A stretch of 64,000 nucleotides of DNA from an uncultured Spirochaetota bacterium (GTDB lineage Bacteria; Spirochaetota; Spirochaetia; SZUA-6; Fen-1364), in the NCBI GenBank assembly GCA_963781885.1, contig CAWAHW010000004.1, positions 384,001-448,000 on the forward strand, read 5' to 3'. This document shows positions 26,494-47,597 of the stretch, piece by piece. Both the position numbers and the translations under genes were made by a program. A model generated the notes under the pieces. It had not been told where the DNA came from, did no database searches, and worked only from the letters and a program-made list of their open reading frames with translations. Within the stretch, counting starts at the first letter, position 1, and the number at the start of each line of letters is the position of its first letter.

Positions 26494-27670
26494 CGACGCC
26501 CGGCTTTCCATCGGAGGAATGGACGTGGGAGCGGATGCCGGTCATTTCCGTGTCCGCCCTCGCCGTCGCCGCGGAGGTGACGAAAAAGACCTCCAGCTCC
26601 CAGCCTTTGCGGGCAAGGGCATGCAGCCCGGCGCGGCGCTCGGGCGGAAGCGGCGGGGTCACGGCGATGATCCGCGTCCCCGTGCGGACGGCGACCCCCG
26701 CGCCGCCGGCCAGCCGCGTGAAATCGCCGCCGCCGCGGTCGGGCGCCGCGCGGGCCAGCTCTTCGAGCATCCTCACCGCGTGGCCCGTGCCCGCGCGAAT
26801 GGGCACCGCGATCGGACCGTCGCCCGCGCCCGCCATTCGACTGGCGAGCGCCGCCAGGCCAACCTCCTGTTTCATGCCGATGAAATACACGACAAGCGAC
26901 GCCGCGAGCTCGATGGCCCTCTCCATGTGATGGTGCCTGCCGTCGAGGGGGTAATCCGACGCGGAGAGGTTCAGGAGCACGAGCACGGGAAAATAGAGCG
27001 AGGGCACGTACTCCATGGTGTGGAGCTTCCCCAGCCGCGCCGACACCTTCCAGTTGATGCGGCGAAGCTCGTCGCCGGGGACGTATTCCCGCAGCGAACG
27101 GTACCTGCTCACGTCCTCGTAGAGCCGGTTGGCAACGACAAGCGAGCCCGCGGGCAGCCCGCGCCTGTGCTCCAGCGACACGGGAAAAACCGCGGGGTAC
27201 ACGATGAGCGTCGTCGTCGATTCATACGCCTTGCCCCACGGCCGAAGCGCAAACGGCCCGGGTCCTGAAACCTGCGCCGGGCCGATCCGGAACTCGCCCC
27301 TTTCCCGCGTTTCCGCCTCCCAGCTCAGGATCGTCGTCCCGCGCGGCGCGAGATCGACGCGGAACACCGGCGGGGCGTCGGGGAACAGACCGCCGGGTGC
27401 GTCGACAATCAGCACGGAGCGCAGGGGCAGGGGCCAGCGGTTCCGCACCTCGAGGCTGACGACGACCTTCTGCGTCCTGTTGACCCGCAGCACGGGATCC
27501 CGGCGTGACACCGACACGGCGCCGGGAAGCAGCCAACGCGCGGTCGCGGGCATCCCCACCATCAGAGAAAGAAAGATTCCGAGCAGCCGCACCTCGCGGA
27601 ATGGGGCAAAGGCAAAGCAGAGCAGAAAAAGGATGATGAGCGCGATGTCTCCCCGGGCGAGCGGTCTCAC
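26486..27670 (-). CDS. DUF58 domain protein (MoxR-associated, VWA-like)
   Basis: LIVYP, SLREYVPGDELRRINWKVSAR, ERAIELAASL. Confidence 0.88.
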   Translation of the reverse strand: MRPLARGDIALIILFLLCFAFAPFREVRLLGIFLSLMVGMPATARWLLPGAVSVSRRDPVLRVNRTQKVVVSLEVRNRWPLPLRSVLIVDAPGGLFPDAPPVFRVDLAPRGTTILSWEAETRERGEFRIGPAQVSGPGPFALRPWGKAYESTTTLIVYPAVFPVSLEHRRGLPAGSLVVANRLYEDVSRYRSLREYVPGDELRRINWKVSARLGKLHTMEYVPSLYFPVLVLLNLSASDYPLDGRHHHMERAIELAASLVVYFIGMKQEVGLAALASRMAGAGDGPIAVPIRAGTGHAVRMLEELARAAPDRGGGDFTRLAGGAGVAVRTGTRIIAVTPPLPPERRAGLHALARKGWELEVFFVTSAATARADTEMTGIRSHVHSSDGKPGVDA

Positions 27671-28628
27671 GAAGACGCCTGCGACGCGCCGGACGGCGCG
27701 GCGGGGATCCGCAGGAGGATTTCATCGATGACATTCTCTTCCGTGCATCCCCGCAGCAGATGCTCCGGTTTCACGCTGATGCGCTTCAGGAGCACGGCGG
27801 GAGCGAGCGCACGCACGTCGGCGGCCGCCGCGGCCTGCCTGCCCTGGAGCAGGGCCATCGCCTGGCTTCCCTTATAGAGTGCCATGGACGCGCGGGGCGA
27901 TGCTCCCCGCGAAAGCCGGGGCTCGCGCCGGGTTTCCTCCACGAGCGCGAGGATATAAGAGGAGACAGGGTCGGGCACCGGCACGGAGAGCACCCTTGCC
28001 TGCAGGGCAACGAGTGCCGCGGGGTCCGTGATCGCGGTGAGGAGCGTCACGGGATGCGCGAGGCTGCTCTGCGCCGTCATGATCTCTTCCTCCGCCTCGG
28101 GAGGCGGGTATCCCATGCGGAGGCTGAGGAAGAACCTGTCCTTCTGGGCCTCGGGAAGCGGAAACGTGCCGTCGAACTCCACGGGATTCTCCGTGGCAAT
28201 GAGGAGGAAGGGCCGGGGCAGAGGAATGGTCCGTCCTTCCAGGCTCACCTGCCCGTCCGCCATGGCCTCCAGGAGCGCCGACTGCGTGCGCGGGGTCGCC
28301 CGGTTTATCTCGTCGACGAGCAGCACATTCGTCATGACGGGCCCTTCGCGCAGCTCGAAACGGGTGCTGCGGGGGTTGTAGACGGACACGCCCAGGACGT
28401 CCGCGGGAAGCAGGTCAGGCGTGCACTGGATGCGGCGGAATTTCCCCCCAGGGAAGCGGACAGCGCCCGCGCGAGGATCGTCTTGCCGACGCCCGGCACG
28501 TCTTCCAGCAGGACGTGCCCGTTGCAGAGCAGGGCCACGACGATCCTTTCAATCACGGCGCGCTTGCCATACACCACGCGCTCGACGTTTTTCACGAGCG
28601 CGGCGGCAAACTCCTCGACGCCGGTCAT
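27667..28628 (-). CDS. MoxR-family AAA+ ATPase (apparent 1-nt deletion near 28441-28449)
   Basis: N-part MTGVEEFAAAL...GHVLLEDVPGVGKT joins FRRIQCTPDLLPADV...DEINRATPRTQSALL...ATENP in another frame at a T3/C6 run. Confidence 0.85.
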
Positions 28629-29551
28629 GCCGCGCCGTGCGGTGACGCCGCCAGCGCGGCGGCGATGGCGCAGCCGAGATCGACGTTGTTGAGGAAAAGC
28701 CGCACGTTCGTCTCCAGCGCGCCGCCGCCAGAGAGCTCGACGATGCGCGAGAGCAGGAACGGCGTCACGGCCTTTCCGTGGATATTGCGCGCATCGAGAT
28801 CCCGCAGCGCCGTCTCGATCCAGCCGCTCATGGTCTCGCGCGGGATCTCTGATTCCGACGGCACGGGGTTGGCGACGAGGATACCCTGCGGCGCGCCCAG
28901 GGAGCGCTGCGCGCGGAGCACTCGCGCGATCTCGGCGGCAGATTCGACTTTCAGCGGCACGGGCAGACCGCTCGCGCGCGAGTAGAAGGCGGGGAACTCG
29001 GCCGTCTGGAAGCCGAGCACGGGAACGCCGAGCGTTTCCAGAACCTCCAGCGTCTTCGGCAAGTCGAGTATCGCCTTTGCCCCCGCGGAGACGACACAGA
29101 CGGACGTGGCGGCAAGCTCCGTCATGTCCGCTGAAACGTCGAATGTGCCCTCTGCGCCGCGATGCACCCCGCCGATGCCGCCCGTGGCGAACACGTCGAT
29201 GCCCGCCAGACGCGCCGCCCACATGGTGGCGCTCACGGTCGTCGCACCGGTCTTGCGATTTGCCAGGGCCCACGCGAGGTCACGCCGCGAGACCTTGAGC
29301 ACGCCCTTTTCCGTTGCAAGACGATCCAGCTCTGCCGCGCCCAGTCCGATGAATATCCTGCCGTCCAGCACCGCAACGGTGGCGGGTATCGCACCCTTGC
29401 CGCGCGCCAGAGCCTCGGCCGCACGGGCGGTTTCCAGGTTGCGCGGGTAGGGCATGCCGTGACTGATGATCGTCGATTCGAAAGCGATGACGGGTGCGCC
29501 GGCGGCCAGCGCGTTGGCGACCTCCGGGGTCAGGTGCAGGAACTCGTTCAC
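28625..29551 (-). CDS. psuG: Pseudouridine-5'-phosphate glycosidase
   Basis: AFESTIISHGMPYP, KVSRRDL, GATTVSATM, FATGGIGGVHRG, DVSADM, GKAVTPFLL. Confidence 0.95.
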   Translation of the reverse strand: MNEFLHLTPEVANALAAGAPVIAFESTIISHGMPYPRNLETARAAEALARGKGAIPATVAVLDGRIFIGLGAAELDRLATEKGVLKVSRRDLAWALANRKTGATTVSATMWAARLAGIDVFATGGIGGVHRGAEGTFDVSADMTELAATSVCVVSAGAKAILDLPKTLEVLETLGVPVLGFQTAEFPAFYSRASGLPVPLKVESAAEIARVLRAQRSLGAPQGILVANPVPSESEIPRETMSGWIETALRDLDARNIHGKAVTPFLLSRIVELSGGGALETNVRLFLNNVDLGCAIAAALAASPHGAA

Positions 29552-35416: not shown

Positions 35417-36493
35417 CTACGTCATTCTGCTGAACCAGGCGAGAGACAGCGTCGCGCCGAGGAGGAGGACCGCCATGGCAATACCGGTGAAGATGGCCGT
35501 CACCTCGGTCTCGTCGCGGCCCATGGTGAGTCGGACGCTGAGCGCCTGGTAGATCCGCACGAGATCGCCTTCGTTGTCGGCCTTGTAGTAGCTGGCGGCG
35601 GTGTTCTGGGCGATCTTCTTGAGTGACGGCTCGTCGAGCTGCACACGGAAGAACCTGCCCTCCGCGCCAACTGTGTCGCCTCGGTTCGTGCCGACGCCGA
35701 CGGTGAAGACCCGCACCCCCCGGTCGGCCGCCTGCTGCGCGGCATCCAGCGGGTCGGGTCCCGTGTTGTTCTGCCCGTCGGTGAGCAGAACGATCGCCGC
35801 GGCGGTGTAGGAGCCGGGCTCCACCGCGGGGGGAGCCGTGGGATCGGGCGCTGTGCCAAGCGGAGCATTGGGGTCCTGCTGCGCCGGCGCACCCGGGAGA
35901 AGCTGCTGATCCTGCGCGCCCTGCTGGTCGCCGGTCTGGTCCTGCGCGGTCTTTGCGTCCTCGAAGATGGCGTCCAGCGCGACGAGGATTCCACTGCCGA
36001 TGGCCGTGCCGCGCTGGAGGTGGAGACGATCCATCGCGGCGTTCAGATCGTCCCGTGAGGTCGTCGGTGCCTGGACCAGCGCCGCCGAGCCGCTGAACGC
36101 AACGATCCCGACGCGCACGTTGTGCGGCTGCTTCGCGATGAAGGCCCGCGCCGCGGCCTTGGCAGCCTCGAAACGGCTAGGGGCCACGTCGCGGGCGCGC
36201 ATGCTTCCGGACATGTCCAGGGCAAGGATGATAGTGCCGCGGCTGGACGGCAGCATGACGGTGGCCTGCGGCCGGGCAAGGGCGAAGATGCCCACCGCCA
36301 GCCCGACGATGAAAAGGATGGCAGGTATGTGGCGGCGGAATCCCGGTCCCCGGCCCAGCGCGTCCTTGACCGCGATGAGGCTCGCGTAGCGCGCCGCATA
36401 GCGCCGACGGCGGCGCTGCATGAGGATGTAGATGCCGACCAGGAGCGGGACGAGCAAGAGCAGCCACAGAAGACCGGGCCATTGGAACGACAT
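35417..36493 (-). CDS. BatA-like membrane VWA domain protein
   Basis: N-terminal BatA-type TM pair (ALARPQ), MIDAS DMSGSM, GTAIGSGI, LLTDGQNN, C-terminal TM. Confidence 0.88.
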   Translation of the reverse strand: MSFQWPGLLWLLLLVPLLVGIYILMQRRRRRYAARYASLIAVKDALGRGPGFRRHIPAILFIVGLAVGIFALARPQATVMLPSSRGTIILALDMSGSMRARDVAPSRFEAAKAAARAFIAKQPHNVRVGIVAFSGSAALVQAPTTSRDDLNAAMDRLHLQRGTAIGSGILVALDAIFEDAKTAQDQTGDQQGAQDQQLLPGAPAQQDPNAPLGTAPDPTAPPAVEPGSYTAAAIVLLTDGQNNTGPDPLDAAQQAADRGVRVFTVGVGTNRGDTVGAEGRFFRVQLDEPSLKKIAQNTAASYYKADNEGDLVRIYQALSVRLTMGRDETEVTAIFTGIAMAVLLLGATLSLAWFSRMT

Positions 36494-36502
36494 CTGCCCT
36501 CC

Positions 36503-37434
36503 TCACGCCCTACCGGAACGGACAAGCGCGCGCGAGGAGGCGGCCTTCCGCTTCTCCCTGCGCATCGCGGCAAAACGGACGATTTCCCGCGCGAGATCCC
36601 CTCCGTGGAGAGGGAGAGCTGGTCGACGCCGGCGCGCGCAAGCGAGCCGGCAAGCTCCGCGTCCCGTCGGCGCGTCACCTCGGCGAAACGCCGGCGGAAA
36701 CCGCGATCATGCGTGTCGACGAAGATCTGCTCGCCGGTCTCGGCGTCTTCCAGCACGAGCGGCCCGAGGTCGGGCAATTGCACCTCCCGAGGGTCGGAAA
36801 GCTTCACCGCGATCACCTCGTGCCGATGGGTCGCCAGTGTGAGGGGGCGACCCCAACCGGGGACGCTCATGAAATCAGATACGAGGAAGAGAAGCCCCCT
36901 GCGGCGGATCATCCGCAGCGCGTCGTCCAGCAGGACGCCGAGGTCGGTGCGCGGCGCCCGGCGGAGCCGGGGCTGGCTCCGCAGCTCCTGGATGAGACGC
37001 AGGACGTGCATCCTGCCGCCCTGCGCGGGAATCACGCGCTCCGTCCCACCGGTGAAAAGGAGCGCACCCACCCGGTTGCCATGCCGGGTGAACAGACGCG
37101 CAATGACGCCGACGAAGTCGATGAGCAGGCTCCTCTTCTGCACCTCGGCGGTACCGAAGTCCACCGAAGGGCTCATGTCGAGCAGGAACCACGCGGTCAC
37201 CTCGCGGTCCTCGATGTGCTGGCGCACGTACGGGGTCTGCATCCGGGCGGTCACGTTCCAGTCGATCATGCGGACGTCGTCGGAGAGCTGGTATTCACGC
37301 AACTCGGCAAGCTCCATGCCGAATCCGCGGAACACGGTGCGGTAGTCTCCCTGGAGGAGGCCGTCCAGCCTCCGGATGATGGTCCAGTCCAGGCGCTGGA
37401 GGACGCGCTCAGGCTCCGACGCTTGCCGCGGCAT
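36503..37434 (-). CDS. DUF58 domain protein (apparent 1-nt deletion at 36598-36601)
   Basis: ELREYQLSDDVRMIDWNVTAR, DMSPSVDFG, VSDF, DPRE, DAETGE; adding one G gives ...STEGDLAREIVRFAAMRR...* ending just before the VWA gene RBS. Confidence 0.85.
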
Positions 37435-38440
37435 GGCTCTGGAGGGGCTGGGCAGGGGCGGGAACGGCCTGCATCACCTTCTGGAGGATCGCATCCGTGC
37501 TCACGCCGTCGGCGAGCGCCTCGTAGGACGGGATGATGCGGTGGCGCATGACGTCGTGGGCGAGATCCGTAAGATCCTGTGGTATGACGTAGGAGCGGCC
37601 GCGGACGAACGCGAGGGCCCGCGCGGCGATCACGAGGTTGATCGAGGCGCGCGGGCTCGCGCCGAAGACGATGTAGCGGCCCAGGTCGGGCAGGCCGTGC
37701 TTCGCCGGGTCGCGCGTGGCCGCGGCGAGCCGCACCGCGTGCTGCATGAGAAGCGGGTCGATGAACACCCTTTCGCAGGCGGCGCGGAGCTCCAGGATCT
37801 GCCCCGTGCTCACCACCGCGGCCACGCGCGCCGCCGCGCCGGCCGCGCGCTGCACGATGACGAACTCCTCGGGTTCGCTGGGGTAATCGACGAGCACCTT
37901 CATCATGAACCGGTCGACCTGGGCCTCGGGCAGCGGATAGGTGCCGTCCGTCTCGATCGGGTTCTGCGTCGCCATCACGAGAAAGGGCGCCGGCACGGGG
38001 AAGGTCTCTCCGCCAATGGTGACCTGCCGCTCCTGCATCACCTCCAGGAGCGCGCTCTGCACCTTGGCAGGGGCGCGGTTGATCTCATCGGCAAGGAGCA
38101 GGTTCGCGAATACCGGGCCCAGCGACGTGCTGAACTCGCCCGTCCTCTGGTTGTAGATCCGCGTCCCTACCAGGTCCGCGGGGACAAGGTCCGGCGTGAA
38201 CTGGATGCGCTTGAAAACTCCCTGCGTCGCCGCGGCGAGCGTCTTGACCGTCAATGTCTTCGCAAGCCCCGGCACCCCTTCCACGAGGAGGTGCCCGTCG
38301 GAGAGCAGCGCGACCAGCACGCGCTCCAGGAGGTGGTCCTGGCCCACGATGACTTTCTTCACCTCGTAGAGGATCCGCTCCATCGTGCGCGCCTGCTCTG
38401 CAAGCTGTCCGTCCTTCACCGCATCACTGCCGTCCATCAT
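37409..38440 (-). CDS. MoxR-family AAA+ ATPase
   Basis: GHLLVEGVPGLAKT, RIQFTPDL, DEINRAPAKVQSALLE, ATQNPIE, GASPRA. Confidence 0.92.
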   Translation of the reverse strand: MMDGSDAVKDGQLAEQARTMERILYEVKKVIVGQDHLLERVLVALLSDGHLLVEGVPGLAKTLTVKTLAAATQGVFKRIQFTPDLVPADLVGTRIYNQRTGEFSTSLGPVFANLLLADEINRAPAKVQSALLEVMQERQVTIGGETFPVPAPFLVMATQNPIETDGTYPLPEAQVDRFMMKVLVDYPSEPEEFVIVQRAAGAAARVAAVVSTGQILELRAACERVFIDPLLMQHAVRLAAATRDPAKHGLPDLGRYIVFGASPRASINLVIAARALAFVRGRSYVIPQDLTDLAHDVMRHRIIPSYEALADGVSTDAILQKVMQAVPAPAQPLQSHAAASVGA

Positions 38441-39321
38441 CGTCCCCTCTCGCCGGCCTCAACCGGCGGTATGCCCAGCGCCCCTCCGGTGTCGTCGATT
38501 GGCACGGCGAATCCGATCCCGATGAATACGTCCTGGTTTGTGGGATTCAGCAGCGAGGCGACGATTCCGACCACTTCGCCCTGCCGATTGACCAGGGGCC
38601 CACCGGAGTTGCCCGGGTTCACGGCAGCGTCGAACTGGATGAGATTCTTCAGGGTCGCGCCCGTTTCCTTGGATGTGTATTCCCGTCCCAGCCCCGAGAC
38701 GATGCCCGACGTTGCAGAATCGAGCACGGCAAAGGGGTTGCCCACGGCGATCACCTCGTCTCCGACATTCAACGAGGAAGAGCTCGCGAGCGTGGCCGGC
38801 TGCAGCTCATCCGGCACGTTCATCGCGCTCAGGACCGCGAGGTCCTTCTCCGGCTCCCGAACCGTGACCAGCGCGTCGGACTGCGTGCCGTCCGCGAAAA
38901 TCACGCTCACTTGCGGCGCGTCGCCGACGACGTGGAGGCAGGTGAGGATGATCCCCTTGTCGGAGATGACCACGCCGGTCCCGAGGGAGGAAGTCGGCTT
39001 GCCCTTCTCCAAGGCTTTTGCAGTCACCAACACAATCGAGGGGCGTATCGCTGCGTATGCGACCGACTCGAATGACGGAGGCGTCGGGGTGTTCTGCAGG
39101 GTCCTGTCCACCGCCTTGTCGATGTCACGCTGGGTGAGACGCTGCGGCGGGGGCATCAGGAAGTGGTAGACCAGGATGCCCGTTGCGATCAGGGCGACTT
39201 GTCCCGCGACAAGTGCGGGCGCCCGGTGACGGCGATACGTGCGGACGAGCCATGCACGAAAAAGCTGCCAGTCCGAAGGAGGCTCCTGCGGGGGAACCCC
39301 GCTGCTGCGCTCAGGATGCAC
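38437..39321 (-). CDS. Membrane-anchored trypsin-like (S1C) serine protease lacking a PDZ domain
   Basis: One TM helix; LTCLHVV, DLAVL, IQFDAAVNPGNSGGPL triad. Confidence 0.88.
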   Translation of the reverse strand: MHPERSSGVPPQEPPSDWQLFRAWLVRTYRRHRAPALVAGQVALIATGILVYHFLMPPPQRLTQRDIDKAVDRTLQNTPTPPSFESVAYAAIRPSIVLVTAKALEKGKPTSSLGTGVVISDKGIILTCLHVVGDAPQVSVIFADGTQSDALVTVREPEKDLAVLSAMNVPDELQPATLASSSSLNVGDEVIAVGNPFAVLDSATSGIVSGLGREYTSKETGATLKNLIQFDAAVNPGNSGGPLVNRQGEVVGIVASLLNPTNQDVFIGIGFAVPIDDTGGALGIPPVEAGERGR

Positions 39322-39427
39322 ACGCTAAAATACTCTCCAGCGCACGCAGCGGGTAATAATTATTTGTTAGGGCAGCCACGGGCCTCGTGACGTGCATCCA
39401 ACTCCGCCAGCAGCGGAAGGCACTCCT

Positions 39428-39449
39428 CGGCCCTCGGCATCCTGCCTAT
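39428..39449 (-). repeat. Partial copy of the GTAG-led hairpin repeat
   Basis: Minus strand ATAGGCAGGATGCCGAGGGCCG resembles GTAGGCATGGATGCCGAGGGCG at 57164. Confidence 0.5.
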
Positions 39450-39463
39450 GGTACCCCCTGGAA

Positions 39464-39991
39464 TTAGTACAGCCCTCCCCAGCCGATCCTCACCCCAAGG
39501 GTCGGGGTGTAGACGAATGCATTGGAGAAGGGGATGCCGGGGATCGTGTTGCCCCACGCCTGGTAGCCCGCGTAGGCCACGACCTGCATCCACGGCAGCA
39601 CCCGCAGGCCAAGCTCGAGATCGGCCTCGCCGAAAATGAGCATGTAGCCGTGGCGAGAGTAGCTCGCGCCGCCGACGCCGCCCAGGCAGGTGACGGCCGC
39701 CATGATCGGTCCTGCCCTGAACTCCTGGCCGAAAAGCATGCCCCCGACGCCGCCGTCCGCGGCTCCGATGCCCGATAAAAGCGCCATGCCGAATCCGCCA
39801 ATGCGGTTGCCCCATCGGTTCACGCCATAACCGTAACCGGTGATGTAGCTCAGCCCCAGATTCTGGTTGGAAAGTTGGGGATCGTAGTACTGGAAGCCAT
39901 AGCTCACGCCACCGGCGCCGCCGGCAACGGCGACGCACGCGGGAACGGCGACAAGAAGAAGGACCGCAAGCAAGAGCCGCGCGCTTTTCAT
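39464..39991 (-). CDS. Secreted Gly-rich putative small beta-barrel protein
   Basis: Signal peptide MKSARLLLAVLLLVAVPA; alternating beta-strand patterns; ATGA overlap with the caspase gene stop. Confidence 0.7.
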   Translation of the reverse strand: MKSARLLLAVLLLVAVPACVAVAGGAGGVSYGFQYYDPQLSNQNLGLSYITGYGYGVNRWGNRIGGFGMALLSGIGAADGGVGGMLFGQEFRAGPIMAAVTCLGGVGGASYSRHGYMLIFGEADLELGLRVLPWMQVVAYAGYQAWGNTIPGIPFSNAFVYTPTLGVRIGWGGLY

Positions 39992-42416
39992 ATTCGAACT
40001 CCTACAATGAACTGGGGCTTGAAAACCAACTGGGAATCGCTGTACCCCGCGATGCCGGAGGAAAGCCACGGTGTGAGGATCGGCATGGACACACCCGCGT
40101 TCACGGAGAGACCGCCGAAGAGCGGAAGCCCTGCAACGGCGTGCAGGCGCGGGTAGACATCGCCGGAGAATGCCGTGCTCGTATCCGCGGCGCCGGTGCG
40201 ATCCTGGACGATGGAAAGATCGTAATCGAGATAGAATGGACCGATGGTGGAGCTTCCGCCGACGCCCAGGCCGATGTTCCAGTCCGTGGTCCCGGGCTGC
40301 CATCCCGCGGTGAACGTCGTGTACAAGTGCTTCGTGCCCAGTGAGAAACCGACGATCGACAGCCCGTTCATGTCGATCCACATGTCAAGGTCGTGCCGGC
40401 CGCGGCCTTCAATGGAGATCAGCCCGATGGGGATGCCGTCGATCTGATCGGAGAGATTCACCAGCCCCACCTGCGTGCCGGTGATGTGACGGGCGATATT
40501 TACCAGACCGACCTGGACGCTCGCGCTGTCGGCGACATTGATGAGGCTGATCTGCGGCCCCGCGATCGCGCCGCCCACGTTGCCGATGCCCGCCACTTGC
40601 GCGCCCTGTACGCCGACGGCCCCCAGATTGAAGATGCCCGCCACCTGCGCGCCCTGCACGCTGCCCGTCGTCCAGTTGAGGATGCCGGCCGCCTGCGCGC
40701 CTTTCACGTCGCCGCTGGTCCAATTGACGATGCCCGCCAGTTGTGCCCCGGTCACCGGGCCCAGAGAAATGTTGGCAAGACCGCCCGCCTGTGCGCCGGA
40801 CACGCCGCCGCTGATATTCACGAGACCCGCCGACTGGAAGAAGCGCGCCTCGCCGCCCAGGTAATTGACCATGCCGGCCGCCTGGAAACCGGAGAGCGAG
40901 CCTTGCACGACATTGAAGAGACTCGCGGCCTGGAAACCGGAGACGTCGCCGGACTCGATATTGCCGAATCCGCCGACCTCGAAGCCGTGGAGGGAACCAG
41001 ACGTTCCAATGAGAAGGTTGATCGAGACAATGCGATCCGCGCGCGCGTCAGGCCCCAGGAGGAAGTCAGGGATCAGCGACAGGTGGAAAGCCTGCACGCG
41101 GGGGGCCGCCTCCGCTTCCTGATCACCGGTGGGCGTCGCCGGCGCGGCGGTCTTCTTCGGTGCCGGCGCGACAGGCGCCGCCGCGGCGGCCGCGGCCGCG
41201 GTGATGGCCGCGCTCACGGCATTGCCGACTGCCTGGCCTGCCTTGCCGAATGCAGAGCCCACCGCGGCGCCGACTGCGGCGCCGATCACGGTGGCGGCGT
41301 CCGGTGCGCTTGCAACCTGCCCGGTCGGGGAGCCGCCCGGCGCCTGGTCGTTGCCGTCGCCGCGCGCAACAGCCGGGTCAAGCGACACCGGGTGCATGCC
41401 CGCAAGCGTCAGCGTGGCAGGCTGCCGGCCGGTCACGTGCAGATCGGCGGCAAGCCGCGCGCTCTTGGTGTCGAGCACGGCGGAATACGTGCCCGGCTCC
41501 AGCCCGAGATCGATGCTCTGGCCGTACTGCTTGTTCAGCTCCACGGCGAGATTCCCGTCCGAATCGCGCAGGTAGAGCCTTCCCGCGACGTCCTCCGCCA
41601 CGACAAGCCGCGCGCCGGACTGCCGCAGGTCGGTGAGCACCAGGTCGCCTGACCCCGAGAGATTGATGTCATAGGCGGGATGCTGCGGCCCGTACTGGGT
41701 TTTCTCCGTGGAAGCAAGCGTCTCCTGGAAGGCGTAGGTGTAGGCTTCGTTGAGGGTCACGATGCCGTCCCCCGCCGTGTCGGCGGCGCCGCGCATGGCG
41801 GAGATGAGGAAATGGGTGAAATACGACGAGCCGATGCGATCCGATTCCTGCGCCGCCTCCTCCGCGGAGGCAGAGGTGAGGAATGCGTGACCGGTCATGT
41901 CCGCGGACGCGTCGAAGAGGAATGCCGGCCGCGCGACCCCGCCCTTCGCCCGAGTGAGCGAGCCGGAAGAGCAGGAGTCGAGGATGGCGATCTTCACGTC
42001 CGCCGGGATGTCATTGATCTGGTTGCGCAGGTCATCCCACGCGACCCGGTCCTTGCCGAGGATGAGCCCGTCGTCGTCCGAATGACCGGAATAGTAGAAA
42101 ACGAGCTCGCGTCGTTCATCCAGCTCCCGCGGCGAGCCAATCATCTGGCGGATGCGCTGGAGGGCGTCCTCGAAGCGCTCGAGTGTCGGGCTGGAGACGA
42201 GCACGAGGTCCTGCGGCCGCACGCCTCCGAGATCCTGCATGACCGCGGCAAAGGCGCGCGCGTCGCTCTCCGCGTAGCGGAGCTTCACGAGAGCGTCCCC
42301 CCGTCATTGGAGCCCGTGACGAAGGCAAAACGCCGCAGGGGCACCGGCGTGTCCGCCGCGGCAGTCCACGCGATAGCACCCAGGAGGACAAGAACCAAAA
42401 GTTTCCGCATTTTCAT
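39988..42416 (-). CDS. Secreted caspase-family (peptidase C14-like) protein with beta-helical surface repeats (apparent 1-nt deletion at 42297-42302)
   Basis: Signal peptide + RRFAFVTGSNDGG joins LVKLRYAESDA in the next frame; catalytic dyad YYSGHS and ILDSCSSG; AQESDRIGSSYFTH; later GxQxxGxxN repeats. Confidence 0.85.
40415..40986 (-). repeat. Coding repeats of about 13-15 aa, G[AF]Q[AVL]AG[IL][VF]N (LA_2272-like surface repeat)
   Basis: GFQAASLFN, GFQAAGMVN, GAQAGGLAN, GAQLAGIVN, GAQAAGILN, GAQVAGIFN, GAQVAGIGN, GTQVGLVN. Confidence 0.8.
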
Positions 42417-42420
42417 GACG

Positions 42421-43209
42421 TTATCCTTGCTTGCCCAGGACGAATGAGTACTGTCCCAGACCGGGGGGAAGGGAGAGCGTGGCGCGGTCGGCGGTCGACC
42501 CCTGTGCCGCCAGCGCGCGTGCGTTCCGCTCGATGACCGTGACGTCGAAAGGAGAGGCACCGTAGACGAGGAAGAAGCGCTCGAATCGGGGGGCATCGTC
42601 CAACTCATAGGCCGCGGGAAGGATCACGAGGCCGCGACTGTCCAGCGCCGGCGCCGTGCGGGCGCCGCCTGCATACCCCGCGGGCAGGTGCCAGGTGAGC
42701 GTGCCGCGTCCATCAATGGAGAAGATCACGCCGTACTTCGCGTCGCCGGCCGCGTAGCTCACCTGCAGGAGGTCGCCGCGTCGGGCAACGGAACCGGGCC
42801 TGAGCTCCTCAGAAACCCCCCCGGCCGTCTTGCGGAAAACGGTGAGGTGAGTGGAGAATCCCTTGAGGCGCGTTTCATCCGGCCGCAGCATGGTCACGGA
42901 AAGCGTGAGCGCGATGAGGATGGTGGCCGCGATGGGCAACGCCCAGAGGGGCCCGACCCGGCGGCGCGGCCGCGCCCTACCCGCCCCTTCCCGCAGCATC
43001 CTTTCGCGGATGCGGGGAACGAGCTGCTCCGGCGGATAAGAGGCCAGGATTTCCGCATCGGAGTCCCGCAGAGCGGCAAGCCTCGTCCTTAAATTGGCGT
43101 CCACGGCGAGCATCGCGCGCACGGTGCGCTCCGCATCGGCCGGAAGCTCGCCGAGCGCATACTGTTCGAGCATCAGGTCGGATATCGTCCTTTTTTGCTC
43201 CATGTTCAT
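42421..43209 (-). CDS. Putative transmembrane anti-sigma factor with an extracytoplasmic beta domain
   Basis: N-terminal ISDLMLEQYALGEL (ZAS-like, without HxxxCxxC), single TM, RLKG motif, LPAAYELDDAPRFERFF; ATGA overlap with the sigma gene. Confidence 0.75.
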   Translation of the reverse strand: MNMEQKRTISDLMLEQYALGELPADAERTVRAMLAVDANLRTRLAALRDSDAEILASYPPEQLVPRIRERMLREGAGRARPRRRVGPLWALPIAATILIALTLSVTMLRPDETRLKGFSTHLTVFRKTAGGVSEELRPGSVARRGDLLQVSYAAGDAKYGVIFSIDGRGTLTWHLPAGYAGGARTAPALDSRGLVILPAAYELDDAPRFERFFLVYGASPFDVTVIERNARALAAQGSTADRATLSLPPGLGQYSFVLGKQG

Positions 43210-43685
43210 GCCTCCTCCAGGGAACGGGTGCGCTCCCGGAGCTGTCGGAGGCGTTTTCGCACCCCCGACACGGAGAGCCCCACCTGGCCGGCCACCTCTT
43301 CCAGTGTCATGCCGTCCACATAGTGCAACACCGCCATGGTGCGGGTGGAGACCCTCTCGCGGCTGAAAATTCCATCGATTGTCGTGCGGTCAAGCGCGCG
43401 CGTCTCCACGTCCTCCGCGGAGGCGATGCGCTCCAGAGTTTCCTCACCGGTGGTCTGCGGGCGACGGTGGCTCGTGCGGATCATGTTGATGCAGACATTG
43501 GTTGCGATGGTATAGAGCATGCTGGACGGCGCCCGGTCATTCAGGCTGTCCTGGTAGCGCAGAAGCTTCACAAACGTCTCCTGCATCGCGTCCTGCGCCT
43601 GCTCTTCATCGACGAGCAGCCGCCGGCACCGACGGAGCACCATGGGTCCGTATTTCCTGTAGAGGGCATCGACGTCGAGCGCCAC
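43206..43685 (-). CDS. ECF RNA polymerase sigma factor
   Basis: 159 aa; region 2 AQDAMQETFVKL...LYTIATNVCIN; region 4 YVDGMTLEEVA...SVSGVRKRL. Confidence 0.92.
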   Translation of the reverse strand: MALDVDALYRKYGPMVLRRCRRLLVDEEQAQDAMQETFVKLLRYQDSLNDRAPSSMLYTIATNVCINMIRTSHRRPQTTGEETLERIASAEDVETRALDRTTIDGIFSRERVSTRTMAVLHYVDGMTLEEVAGQVGLSVSGVRKRLRQLRERTRSLEEA

Positions 43686-43795
43686 CAGATTCTCCCGCTC
43701 ATCTCAAACTATAACACGGAAACCGTGCCGAAGTGACACTCCGCTGTTCTCACGGTGTTCCACGGGGCGTGAAACGACACGAAGGAGACTTTCCG

Positions 43796-44380
43796 ATGAA
43801 AGCGAAGATCCTCATTCTCACTCTGGTCATCGCGGCCCTCGGGGCACCTTGCTTTGCGAGCGCCGTGCACGTGACCGCCGACCTTACCGCGGACTTCGCG
43901 ACGGGCGCGTCCGCGCAACAGATCATATCCACATTCACCGACGGCAGCCAGCCCGCGCTCGGTGGATTCGGATGGGAAGCGATCCTCGGCCGCATGGGAT
44001 TCGGCGGCGACTACGAGGTGGACTTTCACAAGGACGCCGCGGCGGCGTGGTGGCTGGACTGGTACGCACCGGCCCTGTACCTCAGCCTGCACCCCGTGGG
44101 CGCCAATCATTTCCTGGATCCGTTCATCCAGGTCGGGTTCGGCTGCGCGGGCCGCGTCTTCCTGCAGGGCATGAGCGCCCCCGACTTCAACGACCAGCTC
44201 ATGCTTTCCCTTTTCCCGTTTGCCGCCGTCGGTCTCGGGCTGAACCTCGACGGGCTCCTCATTTCCGCCAAGGTGAACTGGACGCCGTACAACATTGAGA
44301 TACCCGTGACGAATATCCCCGTCTACCCCCTGGGCACAATCCAGGTGACGCTGACGGCCGGGCTTTCCCTCGGCTGGTAA
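43796..44380 (+). CDS. Secreted putative outer-membrane beta-barrel protein
   Basis: Signal peptide, AAGGAG RBS, amphipathic strands, C-terminal VTLTAGLSLGW. Confidence 0.7.
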   Translation: MKAKILILTLVIAALGAPCFASAVHVTADLTADFATGASAQQIISTFTDGSQPALGGFGWEAILGRMGFGGDYEVDFHKDAAAAWWLDWYAPALYLSLHPVGANHFLDPFIQVGFGCAGRVFLQGMSAPDFNDQLMLSLFPFAAVGLGLNLDGLLISAKVNWTPYNIEIPVTNIPVYPLGTIQVTLTAGLSLGW

Positions 44381-44468
44381 CCGGCAGGACCGCCCGGCGC
44401 CGCCGCCTCCGCGCCGTTGGGGTTTCCACTCCCCCGACGGACGTGCTACGGTGCGCGCGGAGGCGGGC

Positions 44469-45702
44469 ATGGGCGCAACATTCGTCGGGTTTGGCTTCGG
44501 CCCCATCCAGACGGGACTGATGCTCTATGAGGCGATCGCTTCGGGCAGCTTCGATCGTTTTGTCGTCGCGGAAGTGGACCAGGGTCTCGTCGACGCCGTG
44601 CGCGCGGCAGACGGCGCAGTATCGATCAACATCGCCGGCCGCGCCGGCATCAACGTGGCTGCTCTGCCCGGGCTCGAGCTCTACAACCCCCGCGACGCCG
44701 GGGACAGGAAGGCGATCGTCGCGGCAATCAGTGACGCCACGGAGCTCGCCACGGCAATACCCAGCGTTGATTTCTATATCGCCGGGGGAGAGTCCTCCAT
44801 TGCCCGCAATGATCGCCGCCGGGGCCTCCGACGGGCGACAGCGCATTGTCTACACCGCGGAGAACAACAATTTCGCCGCCGAGATCCTCCACGAGGCGGT
44901 GCTGAAATGCGCTCCCGGGAGAGGCTTCGAAGACCTGCAGATCCTCAACACCGTCGTCGGCAAGATGAGCGGCGCGGTCTCATCGGCGGCGGAGATGAAG
45001 AGACTCGGCTTGGCGCCGCTCGTGCGCGGTTTCGAGAAATGTGTCCTCGTGGAGGAGTTCAATCGCATCCTCATCACGCGCATCAGACTGCCCGGCTTCT
45101 CCCGCGGAATCCGCGTCTTCGAAGAGAAGAACGACCTGCTTCCTTTCGAGGAAGCGAAGCTCTTCGGGCACAACGCCGTGCACGCGGTGCTCGGCTACCT
45201 CGCGTGGCTGCGCGGCCACGACGTCATGAGCAGGATCGGCGCCGACCCGGAGCTCCTCGGCTTCGGCCGCGACGAGCTTCTCCACGAGTCGGGTGCGGCC
45301 CTGCGCGCGAAGCATGGCGGCACCGGCGACCCGCTTTTCACCGAGGCCGGCTACACGTCCTACGCGGACGATCTCCTGGGACGCATCATCAACCCGTGGC
45401 TTCTCGACCGGGTGGAGCGCATCATCCGCGACCCGCGAAGGAAGCTCGGGTGGAATGACCGTCTTTTCGGCACGATGCGCCTCGCCCTGGAGCATGGCAT
45501 CGAGCCGCGCCGGGTCGCCCTCGCGGCCGCCGCAGCGGTCGAGTTCGCGCGCGAATCGGCGAGAAGCGACGCCGCGCCGCGCGCCTTGTTGCAGGGGCTC
45601 TGGGGAAAAGGAGCCGAAGGGCCCGCCGCCGAAAGATGCATCGCACTCGTGGAGGAGGCGCGACCCGCGCTTCCGGGATGGCGGCGCTCCCGCACCGATT
45701 GA
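44469..45702 (+). CDS. Mannitol/mannitol-1-phosphate dehydrogenase-like oxidoreductase (apparent 1-nt insertion at 44803-44805)
   Basis: FVGFGFGPIQ Rossmann start; AENN, EAKLFGHNAVHA, NPWLLDRVERIIRDPRRKLGWNDRL in the second frame. Confidence 0.75.
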
Positions 45703-47299: not shown

Positions 47300-47597
47300 A
47301 ATGCCACGGACTACCGTGGCCGGCGTGGCCGCGGCTCTCGCCGCGCCAGCGCGGCTGCCGCCCTCCGCACGGAGTACAAATGCCACGGACTGCAAATGCC
47401 ATGGAGTACCCTGGCCGGCGTGGCCGCGGCTCTCGCCGTCTGCTTCGCAGCCGGCTGCCGCCCTCCGCGCCGCTTCGCGTTGCTACGAAAATGCCACGGG
47501 CTACGTGGCCGCGGCTCTCGCCATCTGCTTCGCAGCCGGCTGCCGCCCTCCGCGCCGCTTCGCGTTGCTACGAAAATGCCACGGACTACCGTGGCCG
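47300..47597. repeat. Tandem array of about 85-bp palindrome-rich units (about 3.5 copies)
   Basis: 47419-47499 and 47504-47584 are identical at 80 of 81 nt; recurring GCCACGG-ACTA-CCGTGGC core. Confidence 0.9.

Follow-up and report, generated by a model that had tools for sequence, protein, structure and literature searches.

A sigma factor, anti-sigma factor and caspase-like protease unit that recurs in Spirochaetota and Myxococcota, with a possible role in envelope signalling

We analysed 64,000 nucleotides of DNA from an uncultured Spirochaetota bacterium (assembly GCA_963781885.1, contig CAWAHW010000004.1, positions 384,001 to 448,000), referred to here as the window. The source genome comprises 4.64 Mb in 7 contigs. 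Positions 39464 to 44380 of the window contain genes for a sigma factor of extracytoplasmic function (ECF), a membrane-spanning anti-sigma factor, an exported caspase-like protease and two small exported proteins. The arrangement of sigma factor, anti-sigma factor and caspase is not due to chance, and recurs across two phyla. We describe the parts of this module, their conservation and their promoters, and then consider whether the protease might control the sigma factor by cutting the anti-sigma factor.

A preliminary description of the locus had reported four tightly coupled genes on the minus strand. All of the junctions on which this was based are present, namely ATGA overlaps at 43206-43209 and 39988-39991, and a 4-nt gap at 42417-42420. 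The genes, their promoters and the relevant parts of the anti-sigma factor are as follows.

43206-43685, minus strand: ECF (group 4) sigma factor of 159 amino acids, recognized by Pfam and NCBIfam matches
42421-43209, minus strand: single-pass anti-sigma factor of 262 amino acids, with a helical domain, a transmembrane helix and a DUF4384-like beta-sandwich
about 42886-42948, minus strand: transmembrane helix of the anti-sigma factor
42859-42873, minus strand: juxtamembrane TRLKG of the anti-sigma factor, a candidate cleavage site (after K116)
42285-42416, minus strand: 5′ piece of the caspase gene, encoding the signal peptide and first beta-strand and ending at an out-of-frame TGA; its match is to the N-terminal ends of P0001-P0004, which are intact homologues
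42297-42302, minus strand: G6 run, one base shorter than in relatives (frameshift), from a DNA alignment with loci L003 and L004
39988-42303, minus strand: main caspase frame, of 771 codons
39464-39991, minus strand: “barrel1”, a Gly-rich exported protein of 175 amino acids, translationally coupled to the caspase gene and lineage-specific
43713-43739, minus strand: GTGTCAC-N15-GTGTT, an ECF-type promoter that serves the sigma operon and is located 27 nt upstream of where the sigma gene starts
43733-43759, plus strand: GTGACAC-N15-GTGTT, an ECF-type promoter that serves the divergent barrel gene
43796-44380, plus strand: “barrel2”, a small exported protein of 194 amino acids, likely an outer-membrane beta-barrel and a probable regulon member

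Homologues of the caspase protein are numerous: of 8000 candidates that were scored, 2786 are homologues at E ≤ 0.001. Species-representative genomes were scanned for relatives, of which 558 were confirmed, and the best 80 loci were analysed. These loci belong mainly to Spirochaetota and Myxococcota, the latter including Myxococcus and Corallococcus among others; a few come from records that bear the name Acidobacteriota or Eiseniibacteriota in their titles. Neighbouring genes were called by tblastn with the window proteins. A homologous anti-sigma gene lies directly upstream of the caspase gene, on the same strand, in 71 of the 73 loci that have enough sequence to be testable. The two exceptions (L014 and L082) also have the anti-sigma gene, disrupted by frameshift-like breaks. 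The sigma gene is present in 62 of 71 loci. The other nine, in which no sigma gene is adjacent, are of a Myxococcaceae type (L036, L041, L042, L047-L049, L051, L053 and L075) and retain the anti-sigma–caspase pair; in L075, a GNAT-like gene is located ahead of the anti-sigma gene. In the phylum sample, a caspase match at E ≤ 1e-40 occurs in 59 of 401 genomes, corresponding to 42 of 153 genera. The sigma factor, anti-sigma factor and caspase are a conserved unit in both Spirochaetota and Myxococcota.

We also considered natural fusions of the anti-sigma factor and the caspase. The two long open reading frames that suggested them were artefacts, given that L006 has a stop codon and L082 is frameshifted. 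A search for longer fusion proteins returned only P0122, a garbled read-through, and is weak evidence that fusions are absent.

The first gene of the operon encodes an ECF sigma factor, in agreement with its preliminary assignment. Its product matches the Pfam families Sigma70_r2 (53.9 bits) and r4_2 (28.9 bits), both over their cut-offs, as well as the NCBIfam model sigma70-ECF TIGR02937 (77.3 bits, with a cut-off of 42.9). Relatives in the PDB include SigL, SigE and SigW, and the N-terminal sequence MALDVDALYRKYGPMVLRRC is conserved in homologues. The protein does not fit ECF216, a Myxococcales group. Another group, ECF54, is linked to CHAT proteins and lacks an anti-sigma factor. The word “caspase” is absent from the main text of Casas-Pastor 2021 and from the available part of its supplement.

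The preliminary description had singled out GTGACAC...GTGTT as a candidate shared motif. This motif proved to be a conserved promoter, occurring upstream of orthologous sigma genes as well as of the divergent barrel gene. The form T(G/A)(A/T)C(A/G)(C/T)-N14-16-GTGTT is found upstream of the sigma gene in most loci of the two phyla. Of 62 testable loci, 37 have a related motif within the 120 nt that lie upstream of the sigma start; apart from these, 12 matches occur in 1.79 million strand-bases, which is a background of 0.0008 per 120 nt. The barrel2 gene has the same motif ahead of it in 11 of 21 testable loci. Among 10 loci without a called sigma gene, two have the motif within 250 nt upstream of the anti-sigma gene (L042, L047 and L075 are the listed candidates).

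In the window, the two promoters stand back to back and share a palindromic heptamer at 43733-43739. A strict version of the pattern matches only these two sites in the 4.64-Mb genome (the reversed control gave 1 match), so the regulon appears to consist of the module's own operon and barrel2. A looser pattern produced 33 matches genome-wide versus 20 in the reversed control, and no clear further regulon members. We found neither a sigma-70-type promoter nor a convincing terminator across 39200-44600.

The divergent gene, barrel2, exists and ends at position 44380, as described previously, but it starts at the ATG at 43796 rather than at the GTG at 43733. The ATG preserves a signal peptide (MKAKILIL...) that is common to its homologues. 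At the C-terminus, the protein reads ...AGLSLGW, and homologues finish in W or F. It has no sequence match in Pfam or the PDB; the nearest Atlas clusters are named outer-membrane beta-barrel (score 0.96), which is a lead only. The protein is likely an outer-membrane beta-barrel. Relatives of barrel2 are present in 23 of the 80 loci, divergently upstream in 18 and downstream of the caspase gene in five.

The Gly-rich gene at the other end of the module, barrel1, is coupled by an ATGA overlap and is coding-like, with a third-position GC content of 0.81. However, it is not conserved, as relatives occur in only two of the 80 loci (L004 and L005), and profile scans of Pfam and NCBIfam gave no family match. 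Profile comparisons of barrel1 with barrel2, and of barrel2 with the barrel of the caspase protein, returned probabilities of about 2% or less. Of the two barrel genes that the sigma factor was earlier suggested to induce, only barrel2 has the promoter and is conserved.

The second gene was described as encoding an anti-sigma-like protein with a single transmembrane helix, and our results support this: the 262-amino-acid product has one such helix and, in its predicted model, an N-terminal fold like that of RslA and RsiW. In this model (predicted local distance difference test, pLDDT, 86.7), residues 11-75 form a four-helix N-terminal domain and residues 93-106 the transmembrane helix; a linker of low confidence (107-114) then leads into a beta-sandwich that includes two helices (121-260). 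Similarity in the N-terminal part is weak (Z 6.7 over 62 aligned residues for RslA, Z 6.3 for RsiW), and the ectodomain resembles Ig-like and macroglobulin-like sandwiches in a generic way (Z up to 8.8). The helical N-terminal domain, the single transmembrane helix and the ATGA overlap with the sigma gene are characteristics of anti-sigma factors in class I. The NCBIfam antisigma model scores 37.5 bits, under its cut-off of 100, and the sequence shows no Zn-binding His/Cys motif. DUF4384 (PF14326) matches 24 of the 70 homologues in the anti-sigma alignment at E ≤ 0.01, with a best value of 5e-06; the window copy is below threshold (E 0.097, 13.2 bits versus a cut-off of 27).

The same genome has two other DUF4384 proteins. 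One, on contig C4 and outside the window (L086, 379-1932), is a papain-like cysteine peptidase that is secreted and carries DUF4384 at its C-terminus. The other, on contig C7 (L085, 1231-1881), is a small secreted DUF4384 protein whose gene is beside that of a small barrel-like exported protein. The latter pair may be another pairing of DUF4384 with an outer-membrane protein.

The third gene was originally read as a signal-peptide protein with an intact caspase dyad. Its SGHS and DSC motifs and its Ala/Pro linker are indeed present, but the gene is not a single open frame. The frame that begins with the signal peptide (42416 to 42285) ends at a TGA at 42287-42285 after 43 residues, and the caspase frame is open only from 42303. 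In a DNA alignment with the related loci L003 and L004, exactly one base is absent at the G6 run at 42297-42302. Intact homologues read ...GSNDGGDALVKLRYAESDA at this junction, and the closest homologue, P0001 (813 amino acids), reads ...FAFVAGSNDGGDALVKLRYAESDA without a break. Downstream of the break, the 771-codon frame is open, carries no further disabling change and is 86% identical to P0001, whose residue numbering we use for the caspase protein.

This one-base loss is probably an error of consensus or assembly, and not the mark of a pseudogene. The same defect, a G-run that is one base short on the same strand, is found in three genes of the 64-kb window: the caspase gene, a DUF58 gene and a MoxR gene. 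Together with the otherwise undamaged caspase frame and a genome of 7 contigs for 4.64 Mb, which suggests long-read assembly, this recurrence favours an artefact. Similar breaks occur at L014 and L082, which are loci of other metagenome-assembled genomes from long reads. It is doubtful, then, that the frameshift is real and the caspase gene dead in this organism, an alternative that concerns the window copy only and is compatible with any other reading of the module. The assembly as given does carry the break, however, and G-runs are also natural slippage sites. Moreover, rpoB and rpoC are intact, such that no essential gene was caught broken and assembly errors are not everywhere.

Additional data on the junction came from three peat-metagenome runs, which contain only fragments or relatives and provide no coverage of 42297-42302 from this strain. 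One loose end of a relative passes the junction in frame, and shows only that relatives are intact. A genome-wide count of “one base missing” junctions at G/C runs (43 vs 42) is swamped by natural gene boundaries. Programmed frameshifting was rejected, as relatives are in frame without a G7 run or slippery context.

The other two broken genes in the window are as follows. The DUF58 gene (36043-37434, minus strand) belongs to a MoxR-DUF58-VWA/BatA cluster and has its frameshift near the 3′ end, at about 36580-36590, where a GGGG run is one base short. Its open reading frame extends 450 nt into the next gene, and the tail, ...GDLAREIVRFAAMRRE, continues in another frame; in the relative L007, the gene is contiguous. 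The second is a second MoxR-type AAA_3 ATPase gene (27667-28700, minus strand), which is broken at about 28440-28450, just past the Walker A motif, at a GGGGGGAAA run. Its Pfam match begins only at profile position 25.

We studied the architecture of the caspase protein using an AlphaFold2 model of the intact P0001, built with 99 homologues (mean pLDDT 80.5). The corresponding elements of the window's gene, all on the minus strand and in the main frame, are as follows.

to about 41700, minus strand: Peptidase_C14 domain
42079-42096, minus strand: YYSGHS with the catalytic His; aligns with HYSGHG of metacaspase-4
41962-41979, minus strand: DSCSSG with the catalytic Cys, and an Asp at Cys-2; aligns with DSCHSG of metacaspase-4
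41938-41955, minus strand: TRAKGG in the flexible post-Cys loop, a candidate autoprocessing site
about 41392-41649, minus strand: beta-sandwich
between the beta-sandwich and the beta-helix, minus strand: Ala/Pro/Gly linker
about 40410-41090, minus strand: beta-helix with GxQxAGxxN repeats
39991 to about 40400, minus strand: 8-stranded barrel

In the model, the caspase domain (residues 27-240) is followed by the beta-sandwich (260-336), a disordered stretch with two Ala/Gly-rich helices (349-437), the beta-helix (443-672, pLDDT above 90) and a barrel of eight long strands (676-812). The intact homologues P0001, P0017, P0045 and P0106 match Peptidase_C14 (PF00656) with 31-38 bits versus a cut-off of 21.4. 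The window's own 771-amino-acid frame, which is without the first strand, has no such match even at E 10. In a Foldseek search of the PDB, caspases (E about 4e-05), MALT1 and metacaspases are among the top rows. A search independent of Foldseek matched residues 23-270 to metacaspase-4 (6w8r; Z 17.5, root mean square deviation 3.3, 204 aligned residues), caspase-9 (Z 17.3) and MALT1 (Z 17.0). In the same search, residues 440-671 resemble the beta-helices of 3p4g (Z 20.2), of the secretion domains of EtpA (Z 15.6) and HMW1 (Z 15.5), and of pertactin (Z 14.0), and residues 672-813 resemble transmembrane barrels of small size: a designed barrel (Z 14.8), the N-terminal domain of OprF (Z 14.6), NspA, PagL and OmpW.

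These results refine two earlier observations. The roughly 12 GxQxxGxxN repeats correspond to eight strict G.Q..G..N repeats plus degenerate ones in the sequence, and to about 15 rungs of a beta-helix in the model. The C-terminal beta-strand domain is all-beta, as stated, but consists of the beta-helix plus an 8-stranded barrel. The NCBIfam model NF047436 (LA_2272 surface repeat) matches the window protein with 38.2 bits and three homologues with 29-43 bits, above its cut-off of 25. The Ala/Gly-rich helices form a hairpin (P0001 residues 377-416, window about 40980-41200, minus strand) between the sandwich and the beta-helix. This hairpin has a weak Gly-zipper_Omp match in P0017 (E 0.018), occurs only in closer spirochaete relatives and is absent from distant ones; it may be a membrane-associating element.

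The preliminary description had the repeat domain sense a ligand at the cell surface, and a protein with a beta-helix and a C-terminal barrel could be an autotransporter-like surface protease or adhesin, with the barrel exporting the beta-helix and the caspase and the repeats binding a ligand. In line with this, the beta-helix resembles those of the secreted proteins EtpA, HMW1 and pertactin, and the NCBIfam repeat model includes “surface repeat” in its name. However, classical autotransporter barrels have 12 strands. The barrel in our model has eight (676-812), which does not fit a type Va autotransporter, and the listed structures of similar fold include 8-stranded anchors and enzymes. Because eight strands are too few for an autotransporter, the barrel likely serves as an anchor, not a pore. 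Its turns 1-3 have 3, 2 and 5 residues, and its loops 3 and 4 have 12 and 18 (counted with a periplasmic N-terminus), which is the usual pattern for outer-membrane barrels. Given this pattern and the position of the beta-helix directly N-terminal to the barrel, we infer from the model that the beta-helix, linker and caspase are in the periplasm, tethered to the outer membrane. The sensor domain of the conserved partner is also periplasmic, according to the anti-sigma model. Surface sensing is thus unlikely, and a surface protease or adhesin of the above kind is very improbable.

Both residues of the dyad, H112 and C149, are invariant in all 99 aligned homologues, and the dyad is in frame in 79 of the 80 loci. 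D52 and D147 are also invariant in the alignment, and fall on the Asp residues of VND and DSC in Arabidopsis metacaspase-4 in a profile alignment. According to PMC4357240, which reviews clan CD structures, the Asp residues of the S1 pocket at alpha1 and L4 are Asp95 and Asp211 in TbMCA2, and Asp365 and Asp462 in the Arg-specific MALT1, while caspases carry Arg/Gln/Arg at those S1 positions. D52 and D147 correspond to the acidic S1 pocket typical of the metacaspase, orthocaspase and paracaspase branch, which accepts a basic P1 residue. Judging from its sequence, the protease looks active and specific for Lys or Arg.

A short motif is common to the protease and the anti-sigma factor. The best-conserved stretch of the anti-sigma factor is (E/D)xTRxKG, located where the linker meets the sandwich; in the model, TRLKG is at the end of the low-confidence linker. 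Among the 70 homologues, R114 is present in 58, K116 in 69 (the other has Arg) and G117 in all. In the caspase protein, TRxKGG occurs nine residues past the catalytic Cys. All 99 aligned sequences share T155, R156, K158, G159 and G160, and 79 of the 80 loci have R-x-(K/R)-G in this post-Cys loop. The loop (151-180) has a pLDDT below 50. Topologically, it is equivalent to the site of caspase auto-processing. RxKG is the only motif of the form a-x-c-d that is common to both alignments, which have seven (anti-sigma) and 84 (caspase) such conserved motifs. The other caspase of this genome lacks it, as do the two further DUF4384 proteins. Only one anti-sigma factor, in L037, has Arg in place of Lys. 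Just two caspases have Arg at that position, and one of them is its partner.

Given the acidic S1 pocket, the occurrence of RxKG in both proteins suggests that the protease cuts itself and the anti-sigma factor after that Lys. The shared motif could instead be a structural cap or a pseudo-substrate. A profile comparison of the anti-sigma factor with the caspase protein gave a probability of about 2% or less. A prediction of the complex between P0001 residues 22-356 and the anti-sigma ectodomain (106-262), both with alignments, scored 0.00 versus a mark of 0.32, which weighs neither way.

We tentatively propose that the module is an autoregulated ECF switch, in which an outer-membrane-tethered, periplasmic protease of the metacaspase type removes the anti-sigma ectodomain at RxK|G; we consider this the best reading, though it is somewhat short of being probable. 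The protease would be exported via its signal peptide and anchored by the C-terminal 8-stranded barrel in the outer membrane, while the rigid beta-helix and flexible linker would hold it in the periplasm. The anti-sigma factor would bind the sigma factor through its cytoplasmic helical domain and display the DUF4384-like beta-sandwich in the periplasm. Upon an envelope cue, the Arg/Lys-specific protease would cut the anti-sigma factor after the conserved Lys of RxK|G, a sequence that is the same as that in the protease's own post-Cys loop. The remaining stub could then be removed by an RseP-type site-2 protease (the genome has one Peptidase_M50 gene), freeing the sigma factor. The freed sigma factor would read the back-to-back (G)TG(A/T)CAC-N15-GTGTT promoters, increasing expression of the sigma operon and of barrel2.

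In light of the anchoring and the stalk, it may be that the state of the envelope itself is read. A more specific version of the proposal has the caspase, tethered by its barrel on a beta-helix stalk, as a dedicated site-1 protease of the DUF4384 anti-sigma factor, with RxK|G copying its own maturation site and with the envelope (anchoring, barrel assembly or intermembrane distance) as the signal. We regard this version as speculative and rather unlikely.

The main rival explanation is that the caspase is an output of the system. The anti-sigma factor would sense another periplasmic cue via its DUF4384 domain and be inactivated by other proteases, and the sigma factor would induce the caspase and the small outer-membrane protein for envelope remodelling or repair. 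The caspase gene is downstream in a sigma-driven operon, whose third gene can equally be an output, and barrel2, under the same promoter, fits a small envelope regulon. DUF4384 also occurs in anti-sigma factors of other ECF groups (ECF25), for which the available part of the Casas-Pastor supplement does not mention a caspase. On the other hand, an output gene is not expected to stay beside the anti-sigma gene where the sigma gene lies elsewhere, as in nine loci, and the RxKG that is common to both proteins is left unexplained. Additionally, DUF4384 is often fused to protease domains, according to 10.1101/2022.08.17.504292, and the present genome has the papain-like fusion noted above. Overall, we consider that a pure output role for the caspase is possible but not probable.

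Proteolysis of the anti-sigma factor by the caspase faces several further difficulties. To our knowledge, the characterised site-1 proteases of ECF anti-sigma factors (DegS, Prc and PrsW) are not caspases. The coincidence represented by the RxKG motif is modest, as a rough calculation with uniform residues gives a chance expectation of about 0.07 (84 x 7 / 8000), and a Gly-rich composition would increase it. The Arg of the motif is missing in 12 of 70 anti-sigma factors, and, in the model, K116-G117 are at the very start of the folded domain, where they could have a structural role. The co-variation rests on a single locus, because L060 is mismatched: its caspase has Arg and its anti-sigma factor has Lys. 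The periplasmic topology is based on the predicted model of a homologue, and not on the broken gene in the window. Finally, the window copy is frameshifted and, if this break is real, the system cannot work as proposed in this organism. Nonetheless, the idea of a site-1 protease gains indirect support from the invariant acidic S1 residues, the shared RxKG and published precedents, and protease-driven signalling is plausible.

We now note two other features of the window. A gene at 38437-39321 (minus strand), 142 nt downstream of the module, encodes a membrane-anchored protease with a trypsin fold, similar to HtrA and DegS and without a PDZ domain. This gene is syntenic in close relatives only (6 of 80 loci), and is probably outside the conserved system. 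An intergenic tandem repeat of ~85-95 nt with 3.2 copies (77-96% matches) occupies 47300-47597, flanked by genes for a MutS-domain-V protein and pyruvate kinase.

Bacteria have many caspase homologues. A substrate or role is known for hardly any of them, and they are usually treated as cell-death enzymes. The family described here is large and is also present in Myxococcota, in which genetics is easy. Our proposal involves a concrete set of elements amenable to testing: one enzyme, one substrate, a predicted scissile bond after the Lys of RxKG, a reporter promoter and a predicted location on the periplasmic face of the outer membrane. If it is correct, the protease would be a new class of site-1 protease in regulated anti-sigma proteolysis.

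Several known systems share some of these properties. In the sigma-E system (RseA/DegS/RseP), a single-pass anti-sigma factor is removed by a periplasmic site-1 cut and then an intramembrane cut, and the site-1 enzymes are serine proteases. In FecA/FecR/FecI, an outer-membrane TonB-dependent transporter passes a signal to the anti-sigma factor. By contrast, the outer-membrane partner in the present module would be a protease on a beta-helix stalk. The order of signal peptide, beta-helix and C-terminal barrel is like that of type Va autotransporters, but the barrel has 8 strands, not 12. In its fold, this barrel is like OmpA-like anchors (the N-terminal domain of OprF, NspA, PagL and OmpW). However, OmpA and OprF have an N-terminal barrel and a periplasmic domain that binds peptidoglycan, whereas here the barrel is C-terminal and its cargo is a protease.

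The preliminary description mentioned similar triads in myxobacteria and knew of no mechanistic account. We found such loci in Myxococcota and no mechanism in the literature, but an operon of a sigma factor and a metacaspase had already been noted in 2012. According to the available portion of that paper (Asplund-Samuelsson et al. 2012, PMC3501461), four of five metacaspases in Myxococcus xanthus DK1622 are in operons with sigma-70-family factors, and similar operons occur in Anaeromyxobacter, Haliangium, Sorangium, Ralstonia and Fibrobacter. These appear to be operons of the same kind as ours. In that portion, the operons are linked to cell death, no anti-sigma factor, topology, promoter or mechanism is given, and Spirochaetota is not named for the operon. 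In full-text literature searches, whose coverage excluded bioRxiv supplements and the rest of the Casas-Pastor supplement (which may bear on the ECF group), this operon note was the only result, and neither the architecture nor the motif or promoter reported here was described. If our proposal is true, it would give a first assigned role to many sigma-linked bacterial metacaspases, including the four Myxococcus xanthus operons.

The closest precedents combine a protease of the caspase fold with an anti-sigma or anti-sigma-like protein. In M. xanthus, DdvA is a transmembrane anti-sigma factor with a fused periplasmic TPR-CHAT region, for which trans-autoproteolysis within a dimer was proposed as the first step before RseP (PMC11506125 and PMC6061681). 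Like DdvS/DdvA, as portrayed there, the present module has an ECF pair whose anti-sigma factor would meet a His-Cys module of the caspase fold in the periplasm. Unlike in DdvA, the protease is a separate protein, predicted to be anchored in the outer membrane, and a small DUF4384-like sandwich forms the ectodomain of the anti-sigma factor.

In Craspase, a type III-E CRISPR system, Csx29 is the protease and cuts Csx30. Csx30 in turn binds RpoE, and in some cases its C-terminal domain is DUF4384 (preprint 10.1101/2022.08.17.504292). Both systems thus have a protease of the caspase fold and an anti-sigma-like protein that controls an ECF sigma factor, with the cleavage being proposed in our case. 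Pfam reported neither a TPR nor a CHAT family for the four intact homologues, and no CRISPR-type family among the flanking window genes scanned. Craspase is cytoplasmic, activated by RNA and of the TPR-CHAT type, whereas the present protease belongs to Peptidase_C14, is exported and probably barrel-anchored, and has no CRISPR genes in its locus. If the proposed mechanism is correct, the module would be a periplasmic counterpart of Craspase, and would join Craspase and DdvA to a broader, CRISPR-independent theme.

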